NCBI GenBank assembly: GCA_051531975.1
Contig: JAOPTT010000006.1
Span: 494,977-558,976, forward strand
Direction of reading: 5' to 3'
DNA: 64,000 bases
Source of the DNA: Spirochaetaceae bacterium
Lineage (GTDB): Bacteria; Spirochaetota; Spirochaetia; DSM-2461
Below the pieces are notes generated by a model. That model ran no database searches and was not told where the DNA came from. It saw only the letters and a program-made list of their open reading frames with translations. Positions 1,771 through 11,041 of the stretch are shown here, piece after piece. Within the stretch, counting starts at the first letter, position 1. Each line of letters starts with the position of its first letter. A program made the position numbers and the translations under genes.

Positions 1771-2556
1771 TTAATTGTTAATAGCGTTATATATGGAAAG
1801 TGCAACAAGATTGGCATTCTCCATATTTTTATTTTTAAAGAAAGCTTCTAGTAAATTTACTGCAAGTTCATCTTGTTCAAGATAAAATGCACAAACAGCA
1901 GACAAATATTGTAATTCCTTGGGTAACAGATGAACAACACTGGAATCCGGCTCACTATAATGTAAAAACATAAAGGCTTTATACAAAGCCCCTTGAAAGT
2001 CCTCCATAACCATTAAACAGTATGTATAATAGATATAATAATCTTCCACATCAAAATCAGAATAATCAGGATCATCAATTTTAGCAAAAATATTAATTAC
2101 TTGCTGATATTCTCTATTATTTAATTCAATTAGTGCCTGTTTATACAGTGATATTTCTTGGTTATTAGTTAATTTATTATCTCCAACTAAATTTATAATT
2201 TTATCAATAGATTTAAAAAACATATTTAAATGTTCAATGCTTGTAATTCTTCTATCAGTTAGAAAAGTTGAAATATCACTAAATCTTAGGGGCGATATAG
2301 AATAAAAAGAATCGCCTATCATTATATCTACCCAAGTTTCTCTTCCAGTTATAATTAATGAGTCTAAATATAATAAATTTCCAATTTCAGCTTTAGCATA
2401 ACCCCCAATTTGTGAATCAAACAGTTCTGCATCACCTGTAACATTTAATATTACACCTTTATCCTCTCTACAATAAATAGAAATTGAAAATGATATTAGA
2501 GATAATAGAATTAATAATCGAACAAAATGAGAGATCATATAACAACAATAATACAC
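1771..2556 (-). CDS. Exported hypothetical protein with a FecR-like N-terminal beta region and TPR-like C-terminus (true start probably 2538)
   Basis: Hydrophobic signal-like N-terminus; VTGDAEL...IGNLL..DSLIITGRET.VDI resembles the FecR N-domain; helical A/Y-rich C-terminus. Confidence 0.5.
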   Translation of the reverse strand: MYYCCYMISHFVRLLILLSLISFSISIYCREDKGVILNVTGDAELFDSQIGGYAKAEIGNLLYLDSLIITGRETWVDIMIGDSFYSISPLRFSDISTFLTDRRITSIEHLNMFFKSIDKIINLVGDNKLTNNQEISLYKQALIELNNREYQQVINIFAKIDDPDYSDFDVEDYYIYYTYCLMVMEDFQGALYKAFMFLHYSEPDSSVVHLLPKELQYLSAVCAFYLEQDELAVNLLEAFFKNKNMENANLVALSIYNAINN

Positions 2557-4512: not shown

Positions 4513-5634
4513 TCAATAGATCCAATCATCATCACCAAGGATTCTGAGTTCTCCAGATTCTTCTTTATTTCTAATTAAATTTATAAAATCTTTAGTCATG
4601 CGATCAGCATCACTTTTTTTAACAAGTCCAAGGATTTCCATTTCAGCTTCTACTAAAAGCCTTCGACCTTCAGACATAGCACCCCAGATTCGCCCTTGAA
4701 TATCCTTTGATTCACCTTTAATCAAAAAAACTAAATCTTGGTCTGTAATTTCTTGAATTATTTTTTGAAAATCAATAGGTTCAATATTATAAATTATATC
4801 AATCGTATATAACCTGTCTCTAATGGTTTCTCCTAAATCAGGATCAGAACTTTCAATATGTTGTAATATATTGTCTTCAGATGATCTATCCATATGTTTT
4901 AGAATATCTGCTAATGCCCCTCTACCATCTAATTCCACACTATCTGTATTTCCCATCTTAATAATTTTTTCAGTTAAACTTTCAGAAATGATACTAATTA
5001 CTTGTGGGCTTACTTGTTTTAATTTTGACATTCTTAAAACAATTTCTTTTTGTTGATCTGGTGGTAACGATTCAATTATAGGGGAAGAATATATTGGAGA
5101 TAAATGATGTAAAACTATAGTTAAGACTGAAACACTCTCTTTTCGTAATACCATCATTCTTTGAGTGAAATCTAAATCATTTAAAAATGCAAACGGTTTA
5201 TCAGCACTATCAGGAACAGCTTTATATAATAGTTCATTACCTTTATCCTGGCCAAATGCTGAAATTAAAATACTTCTAGCAGTTTCAACCCCACCTTGGT
5301 TTCTATTATATGCAGTACTATCTTTACCAAACTCTTGTAAAAGTAGATACGCCTCACTTTTACCAACTCTATCAATCTTGGTGATTTCCATTGATACTTT
5401 TTCAATTTCATTTGGTGGCAAGTGTGATATAACTTTCGAAGCTTCATCTGTACCTAAAATCAAAAGTAATTTTGCAACTTTTGTATATTTATTTTCTTCT
5501 TTTGTAGTTTTTATTAAACCTTGTTTAGGTTGTGGGGTTTTATGGATTACAGGTGTTTCTAAAGGATCAGTTTTAACTAGTGATCCTGTAGAAACTGATT
5601 TATATGCCTGAATACCTCTTTTATACTGATTCAT
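4513..5634 (-). CDS. fliG: Flagellar motor switch protein FliG paralogue (divergent, FliG1-like)
   Basis: K.A.LL..LG...AS.V..HL...EIE, GG....IL..A.G, PF.FL, C-terminal IR..EE.GE. Confidence 0.82.
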   Translation of the reverse strand: MNQYKRGIQAYKSVSTGSLVKTDPLETPVIHKTPQPKQGLIKTTKEENKYTKVAKLLLILGTDEASKVISHLPPNEIEKVSMEITKIDRVGKSEAYLLLQEFGKDSTAYNRNQGGVETARSILISAFGQDKGNELLYKAVPDSADKPFAFLNDLDFTQRMMVLRKESVSVLTIVLHHLSPIYSSPIIESLPPDQQKEIVLRMSKLKQVSPQVISIISESLTEKIIKMGNTDSVELDGRGALADILKHMDRSSEDNILQHIESSDPDLGETIRDRLYTIDIIYNIEPIDFQKIIQEITDQDLVFLIKGESKDIQGRIWGAMSEGRRLLVEAEMEILGLVKKSDADRMTKDFINLIRNKEESGELRILGDDDWIY

Positions 5635-5717
5635 ATGTTATAGTACCTACTAGTTTAATTTATTTACAATAGTTATTGACTAAATTACAAGATTTTAATA
5701 TAAATATATTCGTAAAT

Positions 5718-5790
5718 GCCGCTGTAGCTCAGTCGGTAGAGCAGGGGACTGAAAATCCCTGTGTCAAGAGTTCAAGTCTCTTTGGTGGCA
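5718..5790 (+). tRNA. tRNA-Phe (GAA), CCA not encoded
   Basis: Cloverleaf: acceptor GCCGCTG/TGGTGGC, D-arm GCTC/GAGC, anticodon loop CTGAAAA, T-arm AAGAG-TTCAAGT-CTCTT; followed by TCA. Confidence 0.96.
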
Positions 5791-5792
5791 TC

Positions 5793-5828
5793 AAGAGTTA
5801 AAAGATCTAATCTTTTAACTCTTTTTTT
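5793..5828 (+). terminator. Terminator hairpin after tRNA-Phe, overlapping the 3' end of the convergent gene
   Basis: AAGAGTTAAAAGAT-CTA-ATCTTTTAACTCTT followed by a T run. Confidence 0.75.
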
Positions 5829-7015
5829 ATGTACTTTATAATTGCAGGAGTAAGTCTCTTAACAGTTTCTTCGATGAGTTCCCTGGAATTATCAATAGAA
5901 TAATCTTGCACTTCAACCTGAGGAACGATAGGATCTCCCATACCAACAAGTCCCATTAAAAGAGAATCAGTACCACTAGAACTACCTGAAGAATGATTTG
6001 CTGCTGCTTTTAATAGGCTAGTTAACTCACTTTCATCAGGATTAATAATTAAATCACCTTCATCATTTTTATAATTCTCAGCTTCTTGTTGTAATAAAAA
6101 ATCATCACCTGCATCAAAAGAGTCAATAATTAACTGTATAATCTGCATATCTTTAGCAAATACAAAACCCATATAAAATATAATTACTGTTAAAATAACT
6201 AAAAGAGTTGTTAATAACGACAACATAATACTATTTAAATAATCAGTAATTTGACCCTGTTCCATTATTATTCCAGTTATTGGAAGTATTAAATTATCAA
6301 TAGGTGAATATACGCCCTCTTCTATCTGCATAATAAGATAAGTATCTAATTCACTGCTTATTAGATCAGATATAATAGAATAGTCAGTAATCTTTTGTCC
6401 TTCCCTAGAAAAGAGTATAGAGTCATTTGTATAAAACAATATATCTTTTCGATTTTTAACTAACGTTAGGATTTCTCCATTGGCTGCAATATAATCAGAT
6501 TCCAAAATTCTAGATTCTTGCATCTGTAGACTACTTGTTGCTTTATTATCTATAACGATAATCCCTACAACAAATATCATTACTATTGTGACACCAATTT
6601 TCATAATTCTATCTTGGATCCAAATAGAGTCTGATTTCATCTTTTTTAAGAAACTAAAAACTCTTAAAAATCTAAGTATTCTTATTATTTTAAAGAAACG
6701 TCCAACCTTAATAATCTTAAAAACTGCAAATAGTGGTGTATTATCTAAGAAGAAAAATATTCCTGGGAGACTGGCTAAAAAGTCCACCCAACCATAACCT
6801 TTAGTTAGATATAATATAGGTTTATAGCTGATTATTCTTAATGCAAAATCAAAAACGAATATTACCGAAATAATTTTATTAGGTAATAAGACATAGGCTT
6901 TCAGAAAAGTATATTCACAAAACAGACCTATTATAGATATTATTATAAGAAAAGGATTAATTATATCTAAAATTTTTACAATATTTTTAAAATTATCTCT
7001 AGGATGTATAACCAT
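5807..7015 (-). CDS. Membrane protein with an Ion_trans-type voltage-sensor domain (S1-S4), two further TM helices and no recognisable pore filter
   Basis: S2 FVFDFALR, S3 WVDFLASLP, S4 KIIKVGRFFKIIRILRFLR (basic residue every third position); TM ~137-155, ~105-aa loop, TM ~263-286. Confidence 0.8.
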   Translation of the reverse strand: MVIHPRDNFKNIVKILDIINPFLIIISIIGLFCEYTFLKAYVLLPNKIISVIFVFDFALRIISYKPILYLTKGYGWVDFLASLPGIFFFLDNTPLFAVFKIIKVGRFFKIIRILRFLRVFSFLKKMKSDSIWIQDRIMKIGVTIVMIFVVGIIVIDNKATSSLQMQESRILESDYIAANGEILTLVKNRKDILFYTNDSILFSREGQKITDYSIISDLISSELDTYLIMQIEEGVYSPIDNLILPITGIIMEQGQITDYLNSIMLSLLTTLLVILTVIIFYMGFVFAKDMQIIQLIIDSFDAGDDFLLQQEAENYKNDEGDLIINPDESELTSLLKAAANHSSGSSSGTDSLLMGLVGMGDPIVPQVEVQDYSIDNSRELIEETVKRLTPAIIKYIKKELKD

Positions 7016-7032: not shown

Positions 7033-8205
7033 CTAAGATCTATAATCATTTTGAAAGATATCTTTTACAGATATCAAATCTTTTTTATTTGACATAAAAC
7101 GCTTTATTGCATTTTGAACTTCTAAGGACTCACTTTTATATGAAGATATTTTTCTAGAAGCAATACTTATAGCATTTTGAACTAATAATTGTCTTCTATT
7201 ATCTGCACTATATAACTTTTCTAGTTTCAACCTTTGTTCTAAAGGACTATTGTGATATTTAGCTGAAATTTCAAATATTTGAGCAGCTAATATAACAGAA
7301 AAAGTATGAGCAAAAAGCATAGCAACATAATAAACACTTCGAACACGACCAATTCTATCAGTTATAAATGCTTCTAAATTAGAGCTTAGATTAAGATTAC
7401 TTGTTTGGGCTGTAGTAGAACCATGAAATAAAATATAGAAGCCCATATATGTAAATATTTCTTGAGCATCATCCCCTCTTTGACTAATAAAAAAAGTCAT
7501 GAAATCTGTCAGAAAGTCAATAAATTTCTTATTGTTTCTACCTAGACAGAGTGCTAATACTTGTGGATTAATACGTCTTTTTTTAATTGCATCGGTAATT
7601 ATTGATGAAACAGCATCTTCATTAATACTTTTACCATTAATTTTTTTAATATTATGAGCATTTAGGTTAAATGCCTTTACTGCTAATTGGTATAGTTCAG
7701 TTGGATAATCGATATCTTCATTAACTATACTATTAGATGTGTTATTTGTTGAAGAATTACTAAGCTGATTTATCTTTATAAGATTGTAATATAGCAGTAC
7801 ATCATTAGAACTTAACCCAATAGATTCTTTTATTAATGTATCCATTATATGTTTCTGTTTTATACTATCAAGTTTAACTAAATCTAATCCTTCTAAGTGG
7901 GATCTAAAAATATCTTTATTAATCAAAATTTTCTCTTCTGGTAAAAATGAAGAGAGCTGTTCTTCCGTTGTTATATCTCTACTAAAACCTCGACTTAATA
8001 ACATTGGTTGACTTATATCTGCATTATTATTCCCACTCTCTCTACATTTATTGTTCCAAATATCTTGAAATAATTTATATGAACTTTTGCTGTCACCTGG
8101 AAGAATTGTTGCAATTTTTTTAAATAATTGTTCAGCGCTTATCTTTTCACTTAATATAGAGTCAGTTAAATAACTTCCTAATTGGACAATATCTTTCTTA
8201 TCCAT
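7033..8205 (-). CDS. Hypothetical protein (390 aa, probably soluble and helical)
   Basis: Long ORF whose start overlaps the upstream kinase stop (TAATG); no recognised motif. Confidence 0.7.
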   Translation of the reverse strand: MDKKDIVQLGSYLTDSILSEKISAEQLFKKIATILPGDSKSSYKLFQDIWNNKCRESGNNNADISQPMLLSRGFSRDITTEEQLSSFLPEEKILINKDIFRSHLEGLDLVKLDSIKQKHIMDTLIKESIGLSSNDVLLYYNLIKINQLSNSSTNNTSNSIVNEDIDYPTELYQLAVKAFNLNAHNIKKINGKSINEDAVSSIITDAIKKRRINPQVLALCLGRNNKKFIDFLTDFMTFFISQRGDDAQEIFTYMGFYILFHGSTTAQTSNLNLSSNLEAFITDRIGRVRSVYYVAMLFAHTFSVILAAQIFEISAKYHNSPLEQRLKLEKLYSADNRRQLLVQNAISIASRKISSYKSESLEVQNAIKRFMSNKKDLISVKDIFQNDYRS

Positions 8206-10166
8206 TAAGCTTTTAATAAAATTCTGAATTCACAGAATTTCCCTACTGAAGATTTAATATTTAGTTTACCACCTGCATTATCTACATAATTTTTTATCAC
8301 ATTCATACCTACCCCTTGCCCTGCGAGATTATCAATATCATCTACTGTTGAAAACCCAGGGTTAAATATTAACTTAACTGCATCAGAAGACTTTAATTTT
8401 CTTGCTATTTCTACTGTTATTATATCTTTTTTTATAGCAGATTTAACAATTTTATTAAGATTTAAGCCTCTTCCATCATCTCTATAGATAAATTCTAATA
8501 CATTTTCCTTCTTTTTTAAAGAAATAAATATCTTTCCAGTAGGTTCTTTACCTTTTGAAAATCTTTCTTCAACATCTTCTATACCATGAGCAACAGAATT
8601 TCTAACAAATTGGTTTATAGAATCTTTGAATAATCTCCTATATTTTTCTGGAATTAATTTATTATCATATTGTGTTACATCTAGCTCTAACTCTCTATTA
8701 TATTCAACACCTAGTCGAACTAAAGATTTTTTTAATGACTCTTCAAAAATATATTTTTTATTTTTTATCTCTCCGCCAGCTTGTCCTTTGAAAGCAATAA
8801 TTTTTTCAATTAAAACATTAATTCCATCTAAATCATGTTTTAAATCTGCTAAATTAACTGTTAGTTTTAAAAGTTCACGCCATGTTGGTTTAGTATTACG
8901 TAATTCTTTAATATAGTCTTCAAAATCTTTTAGTTTATTTGCAATAGTTTTTAACCCTAATAACATAGCGTTACCTTTAATACTATGAACAGATGCAAAA
9001 ATATGGTTTATCAATTTACTGGTTTCATTAGTTTCAACTTTAAGGAAATCGTTTATTATACTTATTTCATCATGAGAATCTTTTAAAAATTCTTCCATTA
9101 GCTCTGGGTTAACATGGATTATTTGGAATAAACTTTCCATATTTTTTAAACTTTCATTTTCCTCTCTTGTTAACCGTTCTTCTAATAATACTTGAGTTGT
9201 AACATCTTTAAAAAGACCTAATATCTGTATCTCTCCATTTTTTAATAATATTCTTTCAAAATTGAATTCTAACCAAACTTGTGATTTCTCTGCATTTTCA
9301 CCATCGAAGTTCATTAATACTTTTTCAATTGGGTTAATTGAAGTTAAAAGTGTTGGATTAACTGTTTTATTATAAAACAATTCTAGATAATCTTTAGTTG
9401 CAATATAATCCCTTTGTGGGAGTTTACCTTTAATCAATTCCATAAAAGAATGGGATACAGTTGTTGATCCAAAAAGATTATTAAAATATGTTGATCGTTC
9501 ATCTGCTAAATTTAGATTTTCATCCAATAAAAATATACCCTGTTTAACATTATTTAATATCATAGTAGTTTGTCGTCTTTTAGCTACGAGGTTATCTGAA
9601 GTTTGCTCTAATTTATTAAATGCTTGAATACGTATTAATTCAAACGCAACAGTAAAAAGAGTTACTCCAATATATGCTCCGATAGCCCTACCACCCATTG
9701 CGACATTAACAGGGAGAGCTTCTAAACCAGTAATTTTAAATATAAGGAAATATGCTAGAATTCCAAAAATGAGGGTTAAAATGGATCCATGGATAATTCC
9801 AAGAAAAAATATCGATACTAACGGGAATAACATGATCCAAAAATAACCAGCTTTTTCTGATCCACTAGTGAATATCAACAACGCAAACAGTGTAAAAGCA
9901 ATATAACTTACATAAGTAGTACCTATTATTAGTTTTTTTGTTATGCCTACTAAAATTATAGAAATAGTTATTGTTATGGCTGTGATCCCTGTGAAAATTG
10001 AAATCAGGTAGGATTCCTCTATTATATCAACGACTGTAAAAGTTATTAAAATGATAACACTTATTAACGAAATACTACTTAAAACGGCACTTCGAGATCT
10101 TTCTTTTAAACCAGAATTTTCGGTACAACCAATATATAAAAATGATAAAAATGGATTCTTTTTCAC
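8205..10166 (-). CDS. Membrane-bound CheA-like histidine kinase (multi-TM, PAS-like, HPt, CheA-type HATPase; no CheW domain)
   Basis: 5-6 N-terminal TM helices; ILNNVKQGIFLLD; HPt VHSIKG; N-box VRNSVAHGIE; DDGRG; IFNPGFST; GQGVGM; protein ends right after the HATPase. Confidence 0.88.
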   Translation of the reverse strand: MKKNPFLSFLYIGCTENSGLKERSRSAVLSSISLISVIILITFTVVDIIEESYLISIFTGITAITITISIILVGITKKLIIGTTYVSYIAFTLFALLIFTSGSEKAGYFWIMLFPLVSIFFLGIIHGSILTLIFGILAYFLIFKITGLEALPVNVAMGGRAIGAYIGVTLFTVAFELIRIQAFNKLEQTSDNLVAKRRQTTMILNNVKQGIFLLDENLNLADERSTYFNNLFGSTTVSHSFMELIKGKLPQRDYIATKDYLELFYNKTVNPTLLTSINPIEKVLMNFDGENAEKSQVWLEFNFERILLKNGEIQILGLFKDVTTQVLLEERLTREENESLKNMESLFQIIHVNPELMEEFLKDSHDEISIINDFLKVETNETSKLINHIFASVHSIKGNAMLLGLKTIANKLKDFEDYIKELRNTKPTWRELLKLTVNLADLKHDLDGINVLIEKIIAFKGQAGGEIKNKKYIFEESLKKSLVRLGVEYNRELELDVTQYDNKLIPEKYRRLFKDSINQFVRNSVAHGIEDVEERFSKGKEPTGKIFISLKKKENVLEFIYRDDGRGLNLNKIVKSAIKKDIITVEIARKLKSSDAVKLIFNPGFSTVDDIDNLAGQGVGMNVIKNYVDNAGGKLNIKSSVGKFCEFRILLKA

Positions 10167-10184: not shown

Positions 10185-10655
10185 TTACTTTATGATATTT
10201 TCTAAACCTACTGATACATAAAAAATCCCCTCAGAGAGTTCAAAAGGAATTGTTATTATTGGAATATTACTTGAGGGCCATGCTATTTTATGTGATGTCC
10301 CTTGCACAATTGATGGAAGAGAAATAACTAGTCTAAATTGTTCTAAACCTTTCTTAGCATTTCCTGCAATAATATTAACAACTTCTCCTGTAGAATCAAT
10401 TACATCATCATCAATATCTAGTATATCATAACCAACTAACTTCTGGGTTAACATAATAATTAGTTCTTTTGGAAAACTTAATGTTATGACACCTTTAGTC
10501 TCTCCTGCAATTCCAATAACTGCCGAAAGATCCCATCCTAAATCCTCTTCTTTACTAAATAGAAATGGATTTTTCATTATTGGTGTTTCATTATAAAATT
10601 CTTTAAAAATATTAATTGTAGCCTCAATAAAAGGTTCAATGTATTTTGTATCCAT
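10185..10655 (-). CDS. cheX: Chemotaxis phosphatase CheX
   Basis: YIEPFIEAT, SAVIGIAG...G, GEVVNIIAGNAK (ExxN), ISLPSIV. Confidence 0.92.
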   Translation of the reverse strand: MDTKYIEPFIEATINIFKEFYNETPIMKNPFLFSKEEDLGWDLSAVIGIAGETKGVITLSFPKELIIMLTQKLVGYDILDIDDDVIDSTGEVVNIIAGNAKKGLEQFRLVISLPSIVQGTSHKIAWPSSNIPIITIPFELSEGIFYVSVGLENIIK

Positions 10656-10663
10656 GAGCTGTC

Positions 10664-11041
10664 CTACCTTATAGTATCTAATACCTGTGTTATTTTATTT
10701 ACTAAATTACCTTCGCCTAATGGCTTTATTAAATAGTCGTTAACTCCTGCTTTAACAGCTTCTATTACATTATATTTTGCTGCTTCAGAAGTGATCATGA
10801 TTATAGGAAGTTTAGAATATTTTGCCATTGCTCTAAGTTCTTTTACAAGATCAAGACCATTTAAGTGTGGCATATTCCAATCAACAAGTAAGATGTCTAT
10901 TATTTCTCTTTCTAATATATTAAAAGCGTCTATTCCATTAGATGCTTCTACAAATTCAAAAGAATAAGATTTGCTTTGTAATAGTGTATTTTTTACAATA
11001 CTACGCATTATCCGGGAATCATCAACAACTAATACTCTCAT
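10664..11041 (-). CDS. cheY: CheY-like single-domain response regulator
   Basis: VLVVDDS, DWNMP..NG, PIIMITSE, YLIKP. Confidence 0.9.
   Translation of the reverse strand: MRVLVVDDSRIMRSIVKNTLLQSKSYSFEFVEASNGIDAFNILEREIIDILLVDWNMPHLNGLDLVKELRAMAKYSKLPIIMITSEAAKYNVIEAVKAGVNDYLIKPLGEGNLVNKITQVLDTIR

Follow-up and report, generated by a model that had tools for sequence, protein, structure and literature searches.

To our knowledge, a voltage sensor is coupled to an output that is not a pore only in a few proteins of eukaryotes, namely Ci-VSP, Hv1, TMEM266 and SLC9C1. Roles of voltage-sensor domains (VSDs) outside channels are treated only for eukaryotes in the pertinent portions of PMC13661669 and PMC13095418, where bacteria figure only through their Nav channels, and TMEM266 is described, in an extract of PMC6392501, as a functional voltage sensor whose output is unknown. 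A literature search returned studies of SthK and bacterial Nav channels and nothing on a pore-less VSD family in spirochaetes. Here we describe a gene of such a family, P0001, from a stretch of 64,000 nucleotides of a Spirochaetaceae bacterium (assembly GCA_051531975.1, contig JAOPTT010000006.1, positions 494,977 to 558,976; hereafter the window), which has a G+C content of 29.4% and in which P0001 lies directly downstream of a second gene, P0122, whose product we call the partner (the two together, the pair). The VSD of P0001 is complete, a pore is missing and the partner is co-inherited, so the protein probably reports membrane voltage rather than conducting ions, and we modestly favour the reading that it is a voltage-sensing receptor which does not conduct and which passes its signal to the partner. 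An earlier note on this DNA had listed a voltage-sensing receptor among its options, and it is that option which we share.

A voltage-sensor protein and its missing pore

P0001 is encoded on the minus strand; the plus strand across 5807..7015 is full of stops. Its parts are given below with features of an AlphaFold2 model, including the predicted local distance difference test (pLDDT), and with conservation figures, which throughout this text come from a 42-sequence family alignment (TM, transmembrane helix; ORF, open reading frame).

5807..7015, minus strand: gene of the pore-less VSD protein (P0001), an ORF of 402 aa with 80 homologues
6632..6997, minus strand: S1-S4 VSD, residues 7-128
6632-6718, minus strand: S4, residues 100-128, with 7 phased basic residues
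6545..6631, minus strand: S4-S5 linker and TM5, residues 129-157; continuous helix 131-177 in the model; hydropathy peak 2.83; conservation 0.76 and 0.68
6257..6544, minus strand: periplasmic stalk and alpha/beta insert, residues 158-253, at the site of a P-loop; pLDDT 81-90, strands within 192-252; conservation 0.28-0.34
6161..6256, minus strand: TM6, residues 254-285; model helix 254-302; hydropathy 2.64
5981..6160, minus strand: conserved acidic cytoplasmic segment after TM6, residues 286-345 (FAKD...IDSxDAxDxxLL...E.E..L); net charge -10; conservation 0.71 (286-313) and 0.49 (314-345)
5810..5980, minus strand: disordered linker (346-374) and C-terminal amphipathic basic helix (375-402); pLDDT <50 for 346-378; model helix 375-401

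The 80 relatives, retrieved by a word-indexed search, are 255-601 aa long and mostly matched over 84-100% of the query; 75 of them carry a precomputed PF00520 match, and every one with a source name is labelled as a spirochaete. An exhaustive phmmer search over 1.84 billion cluster representatives gave only 64 clusters at E <= 1e-3, 38 of them at E <= 1e-30. A second, weaker match to the family profile in one genome (G244:C175:17901-18680, within a 468-aa ORF; E 7e-26, profile positions 10-279) may be a paralogue.

That the first four helices are a genuine VSD had been claimed from the letters alone, and the claim is supported by profile matches, by the fold and by conservation across the 42 sequences. 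When counted by hand on the translation, all of the residues named in the earlier note are present, i.e., K100, K103, R106, K109, R112, R115 and R118 in S4, together with E34, F53, D56, R60 and D78. A search of the PDB with the family profile returned 14 sequences at E 7.8e-6 to 7e-3, all of them Kv, Cav or Nav channels and all matched within profile positions 16-125, with F53/D56, D78 and S4 aligned to the charge-transfer residues (FxxE and the S3 D) and the S4 of Kv2.1. In a six-frame search of the genome, the window gene scored 44.4 bits against Pfam Ion_trans (cut-off 25), a family matched by 37 of the 42 members, and a hmmscan of the P0001 protein alone against Pfam gave no match, even at E 1; this discrepancy is probably due to a composition-bias filter acting on a protein rich in Ile, Lys and Phe. 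The AlphaFold2 model, built on the 42-row alignment and with a mean pLDDT of 77.7, places S1-S4 at residues 7-34, 39-63, 66-90 and 104-128, and the four-helix bundle is superposable on solved VSDs. A Foldseek search with the whole model against the PDB returned nothing at E <= 0.001.

At all seven S4 positions, 42/42 sequences have K or R; F53, N46, R60 and D78 are invariant, and positions 56 and 34 are acidic (D/E) throughout. Because the S4 and charge-centre residues are conserved in all 42 sequences, the pattern is not a matter of chance. S4 is basic at every third position, S2 supplies an aromatic and an acidic residue and S3 an Asp, as in a charge-transfer centre. Ranked by conservation, S4 comes first (0.82), followed by the S4-S5 linker (0.76), the helix after TM6 (0.71) and TM5 (0.68). 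Judged from the alignment, the sensor is under purifying selection, and by sequence and model S1-S4 form a complete VSD, for which conservation suggests voltage-driven movement.

What follows S4 does not look like a pore of the K+/Na+ type. Strong hydropathy spans mark S1, S2, TM5 (135-163) and TM6 (259-293), the last two being the hydrophobic pair, about 105 residues apart, that had been described after S4; the later helix ends in FVFAKD (residues 284-289), also as described. No TxGYG- or TxExW-type motif was found between TM5 and TM6 in 41 of the 42 sequences, the remaining one having a single chance TEDAW, and in the orthologue at locus L017 the loop is only about 15 aa long. The pore half of Ion_trans is left unmatched as well: the match of the window gene spans profile positions 5-140 of 241, and in 14 of 15 orthologues matching the family it ends at positions 120-157. 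In contrast, the cyclic-nucleotide-gated (cNMP-gated) channels that adjoin the pair at L005, L008 and L011 cover Ion_trans positions 2-236 and match Ion_trans_2 in addition, with a TTIGYGD motif in the one from L005. In the model, one helix (131-177) comprises the linker, TM5 and stalk and another (254-302) TM6 and its cytoplasmic extension, with no re-entrant helix between TM5 and TM6, as strand 248-252 runs straight into helix 254-302. By alignment and model alike, the protein lacks the re-entrant pore helix and the selectivity filter of a channel, in agreement with the earlier note.

The region between TM5 and TM6, which that note took for a hydrophilic loop, is modelled instead as a folded alpha/beta domain with helices at 182-188 and 213-219 and strands at 192-197, 200-203, 226-230, 235-239, 242-245 and 248-252 (pLDDT 81-90). 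The order of these elements fits that of a PDC/Cache sensor (long N-terminal helix, five-stranded antiparallel sheet, flanking helices). The rank-2 Foldseek match of the VSD model is WalK, at a non-significant E of 0.11, and a protein atlas gave scores of 0.82-0.87 only for residues 135-300, with leads for the periplasmic domain itself (0.82-0.83) below threshold. The TM5-TM6 spacing is 89-114 aa in the 42 relatives, although no other part of the protein is as poorly conserved as the insert. It can also be shortened: in the 329-aa orthologue L017:1627-2616, a loop of about 15 residues replaces the whole periplasmic insert, and in the L091 orthologue about 45 aa of it are left. Despite this, the VSD, TM5, TM6 and the cytoplasmic part remain conserved in both.

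The most widely kept feature of the family is the acidic segment after TM6. Across six divergent members, 21 columns are invariant, 10 of which fall within residues 289-334 (D289, L295, D298, S299, A302, D304, L307, E328, E330 and L334). The tail had been called acidic and free of enzyme domains, and both hold, with a net charge of -10 over 286-345, no Pfam domain in the tail and nothing beyond Ion_trans in the 42 members. In a divergent subfamily (L088:7893-10234 in genome G350; also in G368), a 537-aa VSD-like protein has most of its S4 charges deleted and its DSxDAxDYxLL motif intact, and the partner, at 239 aa, consists of the C-terminal half only.

A co-inherited partner

Not recognised in the earlier note were the coding strand (minus), the fold of the periplasmic domain and, most importantly, an obligate partner gene:

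7033..8205, minus strand: partner gene P0122, 390 aa, all-helical and of no known family; upstream of the VSD gene in 22/24 loci; model pLDDT 82.9

In 16 of 17 public-genome loci, and likewise in genomes G401, G350, G057, G059 and G005, a partner homologue lies directly upstream of the VSD gene; among distinct loci, the window included, this is so in 22 of 24 (L094, L084 and L092 duplicate L013, L014 and L015, and each was counted once). Presence and absence were scored in 401 genomes of the phylum, in which related genomes are not independent observations and "not found" refers to the genomes searched. The VSD family was found in 9 of the 401 and the partner in 10, with all nine VSD genomes having the partner; the tenth partner match, in a genome of 80% completeness, is a fragment located at the end of a contig. 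Both genes are also kept in G244 and G264, where they are on different contigs. The partner is obligately co-inherited with the VSD gene.

The family of the partner comprises 50 members, each either unnamed or labelled "hypothetical" and each free of Pfam domains. P0122 itself gave no match in Pfam, NCBIfam or PADLOC, 15 of its homologues gave nothing better than E 0.012 in Pfam, and the protein atlas offered no usable match for it; NCBIfam did not match the VSD protein either. Membership in the HD/PDE phosphohydrolase superfamily was considered and rejected, as conserved His/Asp metal-binding residues were not found on the helical fold. A known defence system, considered because of the patchy distribution, was likewise set aside after PADLOC returned 0 matches for 6 proteins.

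The conserved core of the partner is its C-terminal half: the L001 and L002 forms lack residues ~60-150, and in the G350 form the match is confined to profile positions 172-399. Partner residues 290-390 have a net charge of +6, as against -10 for VSD residues 286-345, and this complementarity, taken with the co-inheritance, suggests that the two proteins bind each other. A predicted complex of the two scored 0.17 and 0.13 against a mark of 0.32, which gave no verdict and was not used either way.

We propose the following route for a signal. The S1-S4 domain, with its seven gating charges, would move with the membrane potential, as its conservation implies, and the movement of S4 would pass through the conserved S4-S5 linker to the P-loop-less two-helix module of TM5 and TM6. 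From there it would reach the conserved, strongly acidic helix just inside the membrane and alter how the acidic segment is presented, and this segment would be read by the co-inherited 390-aa helical partner, in which the conserved C-terminal part is basic. The periplasmic alpha/beta insert would be a variable accessory outside this core, possibly a ligand or envelope sensor. In the genus of the window, the module ends a cheY-cheX-cheA-like operon and may there supply a motility pathway with information on voltage.

Several points weigh against a non-conducting voltage-sensing receptor. Its support consists of sequence, model and gene distribution, with gating charge, binding and phenotype being predictions. 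The periplasmic domain is not assignable, a receptor-type sensor being pointed to only by topology, by WalK at E 0.11 and by the sub-threshold atlas leads. The L088 lineage is without most S4 charges and has nevertheless kept the module, and voltage sensing is therefore not indispensable to the role of the pair. Finally, the Ion_trans match of the L090 orthologue reaches profile position 198, and because cation channels without a P-loop exist, e.g., TMEM175, a missing P-loop is no proof of non-conduction.

Alternative readings and the genomic context

The L090 match and the existence of P-loop-less channels also speak for an unconventional voltage-gated channel or transporter, in which oligomerised TM5/TM6 would form a filter-less pore, or ions would take an Hv-like or omega path through the VSD, with the partner as an auxiliary cytoplasmic subunit. 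The S4-S5 linker and two TM helices are indeed kept at the S5/S6 positions, with conserved Gly and Thr residues. Nevertheless, we consider such a conductor unlikely, given a model with neither re-entrant helix nor filter, the filter motif missing from 41/42 sequences and a filter-site region that is the least conserved of the protein and nearly deleted in L017. The Hv-like path, which the earlier note had put forward as its second option, finds no support either: two TM helices are additional, the buried part of S1 (residues 20-33) is free of acidic residues and the Phe plug is invariant, all of which is unlike Hv1. Hv channels are moreover stated, in the passage of PMC13095418 that deals with them, not to be found in bacteria or archaea.

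A second alternative is a special case of the favoured receptor and concerns the genes around the pair in this genus, which are as follows.

8205..10166, minus strand: CheA-like kinase (MASE6, Hpt and HATPase_c, ending without CheW/P5); its stop overlaps the partner start by 1 nt
10185-10655, minus strand: cheX
10664-11041, minus strand: cheY
4513..5634, minus strand: FliG paralogue, downstream of the VSD gene
5717-5792, plus strand: tRNA-Phe(GAA), between the VSD gene and fliG

Under this alternative, the module would be the voltage input of an accessory chemotaxis pathway: the partner would relay S4 movement to the membrane-anchored CheA-like kinase, and CheY and CheX would act on flagellar motors containing the adjacent FliG paralogue, in keeping with the fast electrical signal that has been proposed for spirochaetes. 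Two papers of 1981 and 1983 reportedly dealt with membrane potential and voltage clamp in the chemotaxis of Spirochaeta aurantia. The minus-strand series cheY, cheX, cheA-like, partner and VSD gene is tightly packed, with gaps of 8, 18, -1 and 17 nt, and the order hrpA-cheY-cheX-cheA'-partner-VSD-fliG-alaS recurs in G401 and G402 (= L013), i.e., in all three gene-bearing genomes of the genus. The kinase, being without P5/CheW and anchored by MASE6, therefore needs an input other than chemoreceptor arrays, and since the source genome (G000) has 16 CheW-domain matches, it is an extra system. In addition, CheY-P diffusion, calculated at ~5 s per 10 um, is held to be too slow for coordination of the cell poles, for which the signalling is described as open in the relevant part of PMC7225975.

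The wider distribution of these genes speaks against this alternative. Outside the genus, che or fliG genes are adjacent to the pair in 0/21 loci (L001 has a cheX 5 kb downstream), and within the genus a tRNA gene on the opposite strand separates fliG from the VSD gene. Within the family of the window, the VSD gene was found in 2 of 24 other genomes and in 0/21 of those from other genera. Matches to the first 350 residues of the MASE6 kinase occur in 44/401 genomes; full-length homologues (665-788 aa) occur in ~10/401, all without the VSD/partner pair, and among pair-positive genomes only G000 and, partially, G059 match. A search of the largest sampled families of spirochaetes did not find the pair (0/75, 0/38 and 0/17), so it cannot be a mechanism general to spirochaetes. 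With neighbours as varied as those described below and a kinase distributed in this way, the che link is therefore a lineage-specific arrangement. A family-wide tie to the MASE6 CheA-like kinase was rejected, as its full-length homologues are confined to pair-less genomes, and so was a universal component of spirochaete motility, the pair being present in only 9-10/401 genomes and in none of the 21 genomes of other genera in the window's family. Even for this genus, we regard a voltage input to chemotaxis as improbable. The fuller claim, that the VSD/partner module reads the cell's own membrane potential and is wired here to a receptor-array-independent CheA-like/CheY/CheX pathway beside a FliG paralogue, is a shade less probable still. 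If it were true, motors would be switched by an electrical signal that runs the length of the long spirochaete cell. The module would then be a candidate, at the molecular level, both for the signalling by membrane potential that was put forward in the 1980s for the chemotaxis of spirochaetes and for coordination between the two poles of the cell.

Some further observations concern these neighbours. The FliG paralogue scores below the TIGR00207 cut-off and is the second of three FliG_C matches in the genome. It adjoins a short, 593-aa alanyl-tRNA synthetase (AlaRS) of NF002436 type; fliG1 stands beside alaS in Borrelia. Between alaS and the gene of a low-molecular-weight phosphotyrosine phosphatase lies a 261-aa ORF (1771-2556, minus strand) with no Pfam or NCBIfam match. 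A hairpin with a 14-bp stem at 5793-5823 follows tRNA-Phe and extends over the final codons of the VSD gene; the two converging transcripts could both be terminated by it. A scan for promoters and terminators gave 62 promoter-like sites against 66.8 expected, which is uninformative in DNA of 29% GC, and this hairpin as the only one nearby. The MASE6 CheA-like kinase appears to bypass chemoreceptor arrays. Six CheW-domain ORFs of 688-788 aa in G000 look like CheA, which points to unusually many chemotaxis pathways in this 5.46-Mb genome.

Outside the genus, the neighbours of the pair vary. At L001:3865-7551 and L002:6007-8853, membrane histidine kinases (5TMR-LYT/PAS/HisKA_2/HATPase) overlap the start of the shortened partner gene. 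In one clade, SthK-like cNMP-gated K+ channels (Ion_trans, Ion_trans_2 and cNMP_binding) are directly upstream of the pair (L005:7292-8602, L008:7435-8745 and L011:7398-8729), and L006 has an ORF of the same size at the same place; a voltage-setting channel thus adjoins the putative voltage reader in L005, L008 and L011. The neighbours are an MscS channel and a hybrid kinase at L015, a GAF-HD-GYP protein at L091 and, at the remaining loci, sugar-metabolism genes, HflX or peptidases.

A third alternative holds that the VSD fold is a mere membrane scaffold and the protein an ordinary two-TM receptor with a periplasmic domain, or an anchor for the partner, with voltage not its signal. The L088 lineage (G350/G368), with its degenerate S4 in a retained module, fits this alternative, as does the fact that the cytoplasmic motif and not the VSD is the most universal feature. 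We think it very unlikely, as seven gating charges, the charge-transfer Phe/Asp/Asp and an S4-S5 linker that are the most conserved parts of the main family are hard to explain for a passive anchor, and as the periplasmic domain, which would have to be its sensor, is the least conserved part and dispensable.

A truncated cyclase pseudogene was rejected, since the narrow family of 80 relatives, mostly matched over 84-100% at 255-601 aa, and a search that found none of 705-2010 aa (rated as weak evidence) indicate that the gene did not arise by truncation of a larger fusion. The likeness to ion-channel-like adenylyl cyclases that the earlier note had drawn was not borne out, with no class III cyclase domain in the 42 members and, on the same weak evidence, no relatives of that length, although the protein was not compared directly, profile against profile, with a cyclase fusion. 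Of the T..V.....F.KD spacing given for such cyclases, T270 and V273 fit, F280 is one residue off and K288-D289 lies further along.

Should the favoured reading of a voltage-sensing receptor be true, the protein would be a bacterial, non-enzymatic and non-conducting voltage sensor with a dedicated protein partner. The VSD/partner pair would offer a compact system for the transfer of S4 movement to a non-pore effector and a route to how bacteria sense their own membrane potential, and natural variants, one without the periplasmic insert and one with a degenerate S4, would help to dissect the mechanism. The che/fliG operon context in this genus opens an old idea, that of electrical signalling in the motility of spirochaetes, to direct testing, even if the family-wide data speak against a general link.

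Comparison with known systems

Ci-VSP and TPTE carry a fused enzyme, a PTEN-like phosphatase after S4, whereas the 42 members of the present family have only Ion_trans. Here, the chain continues beyond S4 with a further pair of TM helices and a periplasmic domain. The presumed effector is a protein of its own, and the family is bacterial. Hv1 and TMEM266/HVRP1 are likewise voltage sensors without a pore domain, but they end after S4 with a coiled coil, where the spirochaete protein goes on with TM5, the periplasmic domain and TM6. Hv1 has an Asp in mid-S1 and an RxWRxxR motif in S4; there is no D/E in residues 20-33 of P0001 and no Trp in its S4, features by which it is set apart from Hv1 without a direct alignment. 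SLC9C1, the sperm Na+/H+ exchanger with a VSD, has a transporter domain, which the VSD protein does not.

The layout of the second half of the protein, i.e., a TM helix, a long stalk helix, a small alpha/beta periplasmic domain, a further TM helix and a cytoplasmic signalling helix, resembles that of WalK and of the PDC/Cache sensors of PhoQ/DcuS type. In contrast to these, there is no significant match, there is no HAMP, kinase or methyl-accepting chemotaxis protein (MCP) output domain, and the insert is dispensable in L017. With the Ion_trans channels (Kv2.1, Kv1.2, BacNav and SthK), the S1-S4 domain, the charge-transfer centre and the S4-S5 linker are homologous by profile and fold, and the S5- and S6-like helices are at the same places. 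The VSD protein differs from them in having no pore helix or filter and in leaving the pore half of the Pfam family unmatched, while SthK-type channels with TTIGYGD adjoin the pair in some genomes. The closest working analogues of this protein are thus Ci-VSP, TMEM266, Hv1 and SLC9C1, and its closest relatives by sequence are the Kv, Nav and cyclic nucleotide-gated (CNG) channels.

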